From positions 1 to 64,000 of IMG/VR virus record IMGVR_UViG_3300013104_000022: 64,000 nt of DNA. One strand, written 5' to 3'. A program made the position numbers and the translations under genes. The DNA comes from a virus. Positions 341-506 of the stretch are shown here, piece after piece; position 1 is the first letter of the stretch, and every line of letters starts with the position of its first letter. The notes beneath the pieces were generated by a model. The model searched no databases. It was not told the origin of the DNA and was given only the letters and a program-made list of their open reading frames with translations.

Positions 341-377
341 ACAAAACAGCCCCCGAGATTTTTGATCTAGGAGGCTG
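341..377 (-). terminator. Attenuator terminator upstream of the Ser-led tRNA operon
   Basis: CAGCCTCC-tAGAT-caaaa-ATCT-c-GGGGGCTG then TTTTGT; its 5' arm can alternatively pair with GGTGGCTGAAAG at the end of the leader ORF. Confidence 0.8.
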
Positions 378-401
378 ATAAGTTCACTTCTGATGAAGCT
401 T

Positions 402-470
402 TCAGCCACCACTCGTACCGGAATTGGCTACTGCCGATCCGGTGCGCTTGCTTGTCTGAATGAACATCAT
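402..470 (-). CDS. Leaderless 22-aa leader peptide MMFIQTSKRTGSAVANSGTSGG (putative tRNA-operon attenuator)
   Basis: ATG 6 nt after a -10 box; stop codon lies in the antiterminator strand; samples many synonymous Ser/Thr/Gly/Ala codons. Confidence 0.75.
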   Translation of the reverse strand: MMFIQTSKRTGSAVANSGTSGG

Positions 471-476
471 GTAATG

Positions 477-506
477 ACCTTACAGCACCCGAGGTGCCTT
501 TGTCAA
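477..506 (-). promoter_or_regulatory. SigA-type promoter of the Ser-led tRNA operon
   Basis: TTGACA-18 nt-TAAGGT. Confidence 0.8.

Follow-up and report, generated by a model that had tools for sequence, protein, structure and literature searches.

The DNA between positions 506 and 341 of the viral sequence studied here, read on the minus strand, is in our judgement, held with moderate confidence, a leaderless attenuator of the actinobacterial type, mediated by the ribosome, that senses many codons at once and gates a block of tRNA genes; no bench data bear on it. This element, the second leader, meets most sequence criteria for an attenuator: a short frame at the 5' end, a terminator ahead of the genes, a mutually exclusive antiterminator that is masked when a ribosome occupies the stop codon, codons that match the downstream tRNAs, and conservation in a relative. 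A sequence-only reading of the same DNA had inferred that the phage splits its tRNA set into two operons, each with its own codon sensor. As far as sequence goes this is supported, by a prediction judged in the related Microbacterium phage Magritte, by recurrence of the design, by the folds and by the controls. The window, that is the whole stretch analysed, comprises 64,000 nucleotides and starts at base 1 of IMG/VR record IMGVR_UViG_3300013104_000022, which has 95,258 bases and is judged 74% complete. The genes at the left end of the window all lie on the minus strand, as do the features of this phage that are described below.

The promoter of the second leader can be read directly from the DNA. 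A -35 hexamer, TTGACA (501..506), is followed after 18 nt by a -10 hexamer, TAAGGT (477..482), and 6 nt beyond it, at position 470, stands the ATG of a 22-codon frame (402..470) that ends in the stop codon TGA (404..402). Each of these elements is found on the minus strand at the place that the sequence-only reading had given it. The form TTGACA-18-TAnnGT occurs at only two sites in the 95-kb record, the other of which heads the first tRNA block, and the 18-nt spacer and TAnnGT hexamer are common to all four leaders considered here, two from this phage and two from Magritte. A generic sigma-70 scan misses the TAAGGT hexamer, only three of whose six positions match TATAAT; the TAnnnT form does fit. 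On transcripts that arrive from upstream the same hexamer could play an alternative role, as a Shine-Dalgarno-like AAGG. The ATG coincides with the predicted transcript start, so that the frame would be leaderless; this start is unmapped and inferred. Further TTGACA-17/18-TAnnnT sites lie upstream of the leader promoters of this phage, at 579 (73 nt from the second) and at 5867 (157 nt from the first). They could be tandem promoters or give rise to short upstream transcripts.

Codons 4-16 of the frame specify Ile, Gln, Thr, Ser, Lys, Arg, Thr, Gly, Ser, Ala, Val, Ala and Asn. It had been noted that Phe, Leu, Tyr, His, Glu, Asp and Pro are missing from codons 4-22, which is correct, and Trp is also absent. 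The chance figure attached to this absence, (41/61)^19 = 5e-4, is right as arithmetic but post hoc. The frame samples synonymous codons as described (Ser AGC/TCG/TCC/AGT, Thr ACA/ACC/ACG, Gly GGA/GGT/GGC and Ala GCA/GCC).

Downstream of the leader, the first gene of the second block is a tRNA-Ser(GGA) at 171..256, identified by ARAGORN and matching the Rfam tRNA model with 58.5 bits. Next comes the 5' part, 49 nt long, of a tRNA-Ser(CGA) at 1..49, read directly and cut by the contig end; reading from 49 to 1, it is a class II tRNA with the anticodon loop T-T-CGA-A-A. The identification of Ser(GGA) and Ser(CGA) as the first two tRNAs behind the leader is borne out, the second in truncated form. 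Because the contig ends at window position 1, the block is unreadable past these two Ser genes, and the remainder of its tRNA set is taken from Magritte, whose terminase is 56% identical. An exact 28-mer from the cut tRNA-Ser(CGA) has no further copy in IMG/VR. The far end of the contig, beyond the window (95058-95258), has long runs of G and C, probably an assembly artefact, and does not overlap position 1. A 14-nt motif, TCAACAGAGGAATC, is located at 261..274, 4 nt before tRNA-Ser(GGA), and recurs exactly at 5516..5529, before the tRNA-Pro of the first block; the copies lie 4-5 nt from the first tRNA. The motif, which Magritte lacks, may serve in processing or as a 5'-leader signal.

The first block of this phage ends with a strong intrinsic terminator (3033-3063), a 13-bp stem with a T-run directly after the last tRNA, and is therefore marked as a closed transcription unit. 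Inside it, between tRNA-Asp and tRNA-Glu, is a full-length GOLLD RNA (Rfam RF02032, 229.7 bits; 4125-4557) that encloses a tRNA-like cloverleaf with a UCA anticodon, labelled 'SeC' by ARAGORN (4415-4487). A promoter-like TTGACA-18-TAAGCT is located at 4934. The 'tRNA-Thr(AGT)' called by ARAGORN at 3265-3347 is atypical: its variable arm is long, position 33 is a G, and it scores only 31.7 bits in Rfam. It is probably no Thr tRNA but a degenerate paralogue of the Leu type. A 14-bp inverted repeat, which may be an operator, overlaps a promoter-like site before tRNA-Trp (6516-6545); no leader frame is present at tRNA-Trp.

The exonuclease that adjoins the tRNA region has matches in actinobacteriophages only. 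Among cultured phages the terminase is most similar to that of Magritte (OR553905.1, 133 kb; host Microbacterium foliorum), at 56.5% identity, the next match being at about 33%. DNA polymerase, SSB, RecA and further replication genes are found in a common order in both phages, and the wider region is syntenic, while the protein genes that flank the leaders are non-homologous. The tRNA layout of Magritte is the same as in this phage, with a Leu-Trp pair, a first block, one or two protein genes and a second block. Its first block encodes tRNAs for Pro, Asp, Glu, Glu, Tyr, Phe, Leu and Leu. The second encodes Ser(CGA), Ser(GCT), Lys, Gly, Gly, Thr, Thr, Val, Asn, Arg, Arg, Gln, Lys, Cys and Ala, with a detached Arg, and contains no tRNA for Leu, Tyr, His, Glu, Asp, Pro, Phe or Trp. 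From the leader alone, tRNAs for ten amino acids had been predicted behind it, with few or none for six others (Leu, Tyr, His, Glu, Asp and Pro). The syntenic block of Magritte has tRNAs for all of the ten except Ile, and for none of the six. Two side observations concern the same Magritte locus (L084): an unannotated tRNA-like sequence (31.9 bits) follows tRNA-Cys at 23446-23522, and Y-RNA-like (YrlA) matches at 25921-26162 adjoin a gene for a Ro-like protein.

The first block of this phage has a leader of its own at 5568..5710. It consists of the promoter TTGACA-18-TATAGT, a leaderless frame of 13 codons (5673..5632) and, in the fold, an antiterminator that pairs 5631..5624 with 5601..5594 and a terminator at 5605..5572. 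Nine consecutive codons of the frame are restricted to amino acids of the downstream tRNAs. In Magritte one leader stands before each block (OR553905.1, ~69346-69514 and ~71103-71327). Both read TTGACA or TTGCGA, 18 nt, TAnnGT, 7 nt and ATG, followed by frames of 15 and 23 codons with a GC-rich hairpin and T-run downstream; the frame of the second (L084:21140-21211) is the counterpart of 402..470. None of these sister leaders is annotated, and a 32-codon hypothetical protein gene of Magritte, gene 99 (L084 21091-21189), runs over the second leader on the opposite strand. A 17-nt inverted repeat connects the promoter of that leader with the DNA after its frame.

The arrangement of promoter, leaderless frame, antiterminator at the stop codon and terminator is found before both blocks in both phages, with the ATG 6-7 nt past the -10 hexamer in all four leaders. 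The sequence-only reading had remarked that the second leader matches the first in architecture despite unrelated sequence; this is confirmed, and the match extends to the two leaders of Magritte. A strict scan for a promoter with a leaderless frame of 5-45 codons found nothing but the two leaders in 9 kb of this phage; in 50 kb of Magritte its sole result besides the two leaders was one promoter that abuts a tRNA. The leader DNA cannot be aligned between the phages by blastn or related searches, nor the leader peptides by BLASTP; residue order is weakly similar (p = 0.01-0.02). Frame, geometry and composition are kept while sequence is lost, the pattern to be expected if codons are sensed, and not if the peptide itself has a function.

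Conservation of the frame and of the alternative folds rests on Magritte, the sole relative that holds the region, and the design has been seen in two genomes only. No usable third genome with leaders emerged from megablast and blastn of the region against phages, from a search for an exact leader word, from two promoter-plus-start patterns used as queries (chance matches only), from a search for neighbouring proteins in IMG/VR or from a terminase search of bacterial genome contigs. The best match of a metagenome scan is a 3-kb contig that stops short of the leader region. More distant terminase relatives with tRNA arrays (G001, G003) have a different array order and no recognisable leader, and the 45 scattered tRNAs of Streptomyces phage Paradiddles gave no convincing leader-to-tRNA match. 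Arrays in AT-rich phage loci (L067, L074) were rejected as further cases, their layout being different: a conserved 47-codon frame, a terminator and then a promoter-like site.

A third attenuator-like unit is seen elsewhere in this phage, at 18630-18776. It has the promoter TTGACA-17-TACACT, a leaderless 15-codon frame and a strong hairpin with a T-rich tail, and it precedes a Shine-Dalgarno site and a gene for an AAA-type ATPase (18616..17939). Four Cys codons, with one Val among them, are found within the last six codons of its frame. Cys is the sole second-block amino acid that is missing from the second leader, and this third unit is Cys-rich.

Folding was performed on transcripts cut before the 3' arm of the terminator, as a co-transcriptional state, with the ribosome footprint masked. 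In the second leader the last three codons, the stop codon and 3 nt beyond (399..410) form the 5' strand of the antiterminator, and its 3' strand (370..382) overlaps the 5' arm of the terminator. The proposed pairing of 410..399 with 382..370 is reproduced at -17.7 kcal/mol. The terminator that had been described as ending in TTTTGT is likewise recovered, as a hairpin at 347..377 with an 8-bp outer and a 4-bp inner stem (-16.7 kcal/mol) and the T-run at 341..346 directly 3' of it. It sits 85 nt ahead of tRNA-Ser. A generic terminator scan does not flag this hairpin, probably because its stem is interrupted. The full-length fold has a second small hairpin past the terminator (315..344), to which no role is assigned; a comparable one occupies the matching place in the first leader of this phage.

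The sequence-only reading had called for folds with and without the segment covered by the ribosome. The antiterminator is lost when the mask lies on the stop codon and retained for A-site codons up to 16. The limit for its survival is about codon 16 in both second leaders and codons 10-12 in the first leaders, and a ribosome on the stop codon abolishes it in all four. Antiterminator energies are -17.7 kcal/mol for this leader, -16.2 for the first leader of this phage, and -23.5 and -24.6 for the first and second leaders of Magritte; terminators range from -16.7 to -21.1 kcal/mol over the four. The antiterminator touches the stop codon in every case, and its strand begins at transcript nt 61 in both second leaders. 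When the upstream part was dinucleotide-shuffled, the observed pairing was equalled in 5, 2, 2 and 9 of 500 shuffles over the four leaders, the 5 of 500 being those of this leader.

Equilibrium folds of the full-length transcripts do not show a switch; only the truncated ones do. In three of the four leaders the completed terminator is the more stable state at equilibrium, by 8-11 kcal/mol over the antiterminator, and a stalled ribosome does not reverse this; the antiterminator must therefore act kinetically. The E. coli trp leader has the same relation between its terminator and antiterminator. Folds of the second leader of this phage have no 1:2 (anti-antiterminator or pause) hairpin; that of Magritte does have one, like that of the trp leader. 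It follows that an untranslated transcript would read through in this phage and would terminate in Magritte. Such a hairpin is not universal among actinobacterial attenuators, and its absence therefore lowers the fit only slightly. A search of positions 1..8000 against Rfam at E <= 1 gave tRNAs, GOLLD and three weak matches below the gathering score, none of them at 341..506.

The thermodynamic dominance of the terminator in three of the four leaders also speaks for another arrangement, in which a fixed, leaky terminator holds tRNA transcription at a constant low level, or stops transcripts from upstream protein genes, and the frame is incidental. The promoter-like site upstream at 579 would suit this arrangement, as would the fact that open frames of 22 codons arise often enough by chance (~0.36 for 21 random codons, by our own arithmetic). 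We nevertheless consider it unlikely, since it leaves unexplained the ATG 6-7 nt past the -10 hexamer and the antiterminator at the stop codon, each in four of four leaders, the split in composition between the leaders of both phages (see below), and the persistence of a frame in DNA that can no longer be aligned.

Known attenuators provide close parallels to a ribosome-mediated switch at the second leader. Enterobacterial leaders such as trp start at a Shine-Dalgarno sequence, carry repeated regulatory codons and control biosynthesis. The thr leader senses Thr and Ile, and that of ilvGMEDA senses Ile, Val and Leu. Like these, the second leader would respond to several amino acids, would form mutually exclusive 2:3 and 3:4 folds and would have its strand 2 blocked by a ribosome at the stop codon; unlike the trp leader, and unlike the second leader of Magritte, it has no 1:2 hairpin. 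T-box riboswitches also report the state of tRNA by transcription attenuation. However, they bind uncharged tRNA directly, with no need of translation, and share a conserved T-box sequence and specifier loop; the second leader has no T-box match in Rfam. We know of no T-box before tRNA genes.

The nearest relatives in form are actinobacterial. RNA-seq of Streptomyces lividans has identified leader peptides for leuA, leuS, trpE, trpS, ilvB, thrS, alaS and metN (PMC8079986). The peptides detailed there, which do not include alaL (leuL1, leuL2, trpL1, trpL2, ilvL, metL and thrL), are described as leaderless, and at least one hairpin, in several cases with a U run, follows each (PMC8079986). Similar leader-peptide attenuators are found in Corynebacterium (PMC3890552). 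Actinobacterial leader frames have 12-29 codons, and several gate genes for aminoacyl-tRNA synthetases, which are likewise part of the translation supply chain (PMC8079986; PMC3890552). The second leader is alike in its start codon at the predicted 5' end, its short frame and the hairpin before the regulated gene. It differs in that it would gate tRNAs and not enzymes, is borne by a phage and is paired with another leader over complementary sets. It also has no run of a single residue but about ten amino acids, mostly once or twice each. A full-text literature search found no published attenuator before phage tRNA genes. The format is thus that of known actinobacterial attenuators; the novelty lies in tRNA genes as the target, in a 'checklist' leader of many codons and in the pairing of complementary leaders.

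The trn operon of Anabaena sp. PCC 7120 shows that a spare tRNA array can be regulated by other means. It is silent by default and turned on when translation is impaired (PMC8421152), and its response is global, not codon-specific. Its promoter is reported to be controlled through direct repeats over the -10 and start site by the repressor TrcR (PMC10272220). A text search for 'leader' and 'attenuat' in these two papers gave no match (PMC8421152; PMC10272220). By analogy, a trans-acting factor and not the ribosome might set the folds or the promoter activity of the phage leaders, be it an antiterminator protein of phage or host, a repressor at the inverted repeats of the promoters or a tRNA bound in T-box fashion. 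The only published inducible tRNA array is reported to use promoter repeats (PMC8421152; PMC10272220). The spacer of the second-leader promoter holds a 5-bp inverted repeat, and the 17-nt inverted repeat of Magritte lies at its second-leader promoter and past the frame. Tandem direct repeats of the Anabaena trn/TrcR type were not seen over the -10 and start site (506..470), which was inspected by eye only. We regard control in trans as improbable: there is no T-box or other Rfam match, the repeats are not common to the phages or leaders, unlike the frame and its stop-codon geometry, and the amino-acid composition of the frames would go unexplained.

This composition distinguishes the two leaders within each phage. 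The amino acids of the first block make up 36% of the proteome of this phage and only one of 21 residues of the second leader (binomial p = 0.0012 for one or fewer). In the first leader they account for nine of 12 (p = 0.0065 against the same proteome). The difference between the two leaders with respect to the first-block set is significant by the Fisher test (p = 5e-5), and so is that between the leaders of Magritte with respect to its two blocks (p = 0.01). With nucleotide make-up controlled by dinucleotide shuffling of the frames, the signal is modest, p = 0.028 for this leader and 0.13 for the second leader of Magritte; the two first leaders give 0.005 and 0.015. Combined by Fisher's method, the four values yield ~2e-4 by our own arithmetic, with the proviso that the phages are not independent samples. 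None of the other reading frames of the leader DNA shows the split.

Codons 4-16 of both second leaders are free of first-block residues. Codons 4-16 here and 4-17 in Magritte encode the identical set of ten amino acids in a different order (Ser, Arg, Gln, Lys, Thr, Gly, Ala, Asn, Val and Ile). For nine of the ten, the second block of Magritte has a tRNA. An overlap of at least nine between the 11 residue types of the leader and the 10 amino acids of the block has a hypergeometric probability of ~0.003, by our own arithmetic. Residues outside the expected set are confined to positions 2-4 or to the last codons, the sole exception being an Arg in the first leader of Magritte; the last codons are the region that a stalled ribosome would mask anyway. 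The second leader of Magritte has four first-block residues, close to its two ends. The match is imperfect in other respects: Ile is present in both second leaders without an Ile tRNA in Magritte; Cys is served by a tRNA of the second block of Magritte but has no codon in the leader; and the first leader of Magritte has His and Arg codons without matching tRNAs in that block. The correspondence between leader and operon holds at the level of amino acids and, as judged from sequence, not at that of codon and anticodon. Matching of codons to anticodons was discarded as evidence, not being above the 69% of codons (42 of 61, by our own count) that the tRNAs of Magritte read anyway. The presence of ten distinct residues in 13 codons was likewise dropped as a signal, since it is not unusual alone; the signal lies in the exclusion of residues of the other block.

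The windows and amino-acid sets used for these comparisons were chosen post hoc, and the two phages are related and hence do not count as independent samples. This leaves some room for coincidence, that is, for ordinary promoter and hairpin signals in which patterns were picked out afterwards. Such an origin would have to accommodate four elements that each pass the shuffle test, a forward prediction of the tRNA set that held in the previously unseen genome of Magritte, and the overlap of at least nine between residue types and tRNAs (p ~0.003), and we give it a slightly smaller chance even than control in trans.

Attenuation by a translating ribosome would operate as follows at the second leader. 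The promoter places an AUG at what is predicted, from the sequence, to be the 5' end of the transcript, with the 22-codon frame next. Between the promoter and the tRNA genes, the last codons and the stop codon are able, in computed folds, to pair with the 5' arm of the terminator. A ribosome that reaches the stop codon would cover the antiterminator strand, allowing the terminator to form and transcription to end about 125-130 nt from the start. If the A site were instead to stall on codons 2-16 for lack of charged tRNA for Ile, Gln, Thr, Ser, Lys, Arg, Gly, Ala, Val or Asn, the antiterminator would be expected to form first, and RNA polymerase would continue into the Ser-led tRNA block. Together with the sister element, the second leader may constitute two feedback loops over complementary halves of the tRNA set. 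Transcript start, translation and termination at the second leader are all inferred, in the absence of expression data. It is very hard to believe that the terminated transcript of about 130 nt is itself the product, a micropeptide or small RNA of a separate small gene, with the tRNAs served by another promoter: the promoter-frame-terminator unit is self-contained and trans-acting small RNAs derived from attenuators are known (PMC6614838), but no promoter-like site lies between 341 and 257, the unit always stands directly ahead of a tRNA block, and peptides of 13-23 mixed small and polar residues without detectable sequence conservation do not suggest a conserved function.

Under the attenuator reading, the phage probably makes the tRNAs of the second block when ribosomes run short of them, for which there are no expression data. 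A broader proposal, to which we give an even chance, is a codon-resolved tRNA homeostat, in which two complementary operons each carry a leaderless 'checklist' leader and a stall opens only the operon that relieves it. Each leader would list the amino acids of its own operon, mostly one to three times each, and stalling could stem from a poor supply in the host, from host shut-off or from defence nucleases that cleave tRNA. Amino-acid starvation would trigger the attenuator in the same way, and this is hard to rationalise.

To our knowledge the regulation of phage tRNA genes is almost unstudied. The reasons for which phages carry such genes have been under debate for decades, with proposals that they compensate for codon usage, take the place of degraded host tRNAs or evade anticodon nucleases (e.g. 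PMC10264068). The paired complementary leaders offer a clean design, in that the response should swap when the codons are swapped, and the availability of Magritte and its host in culture makes a direct test feasible. At about 170 nt, the second-leader unit is also a compact natural part for codon-specific sensors of translation stress. If the attenuator is real, leader-peptide attenuation extends beyond amino-acid metabolism to tRNA genes, and phages monitor their decoding capacity in real time and replenish it when it falls short. If the homeostat proposal is also true, gene control here takes a form undescribed for tRNA genes.
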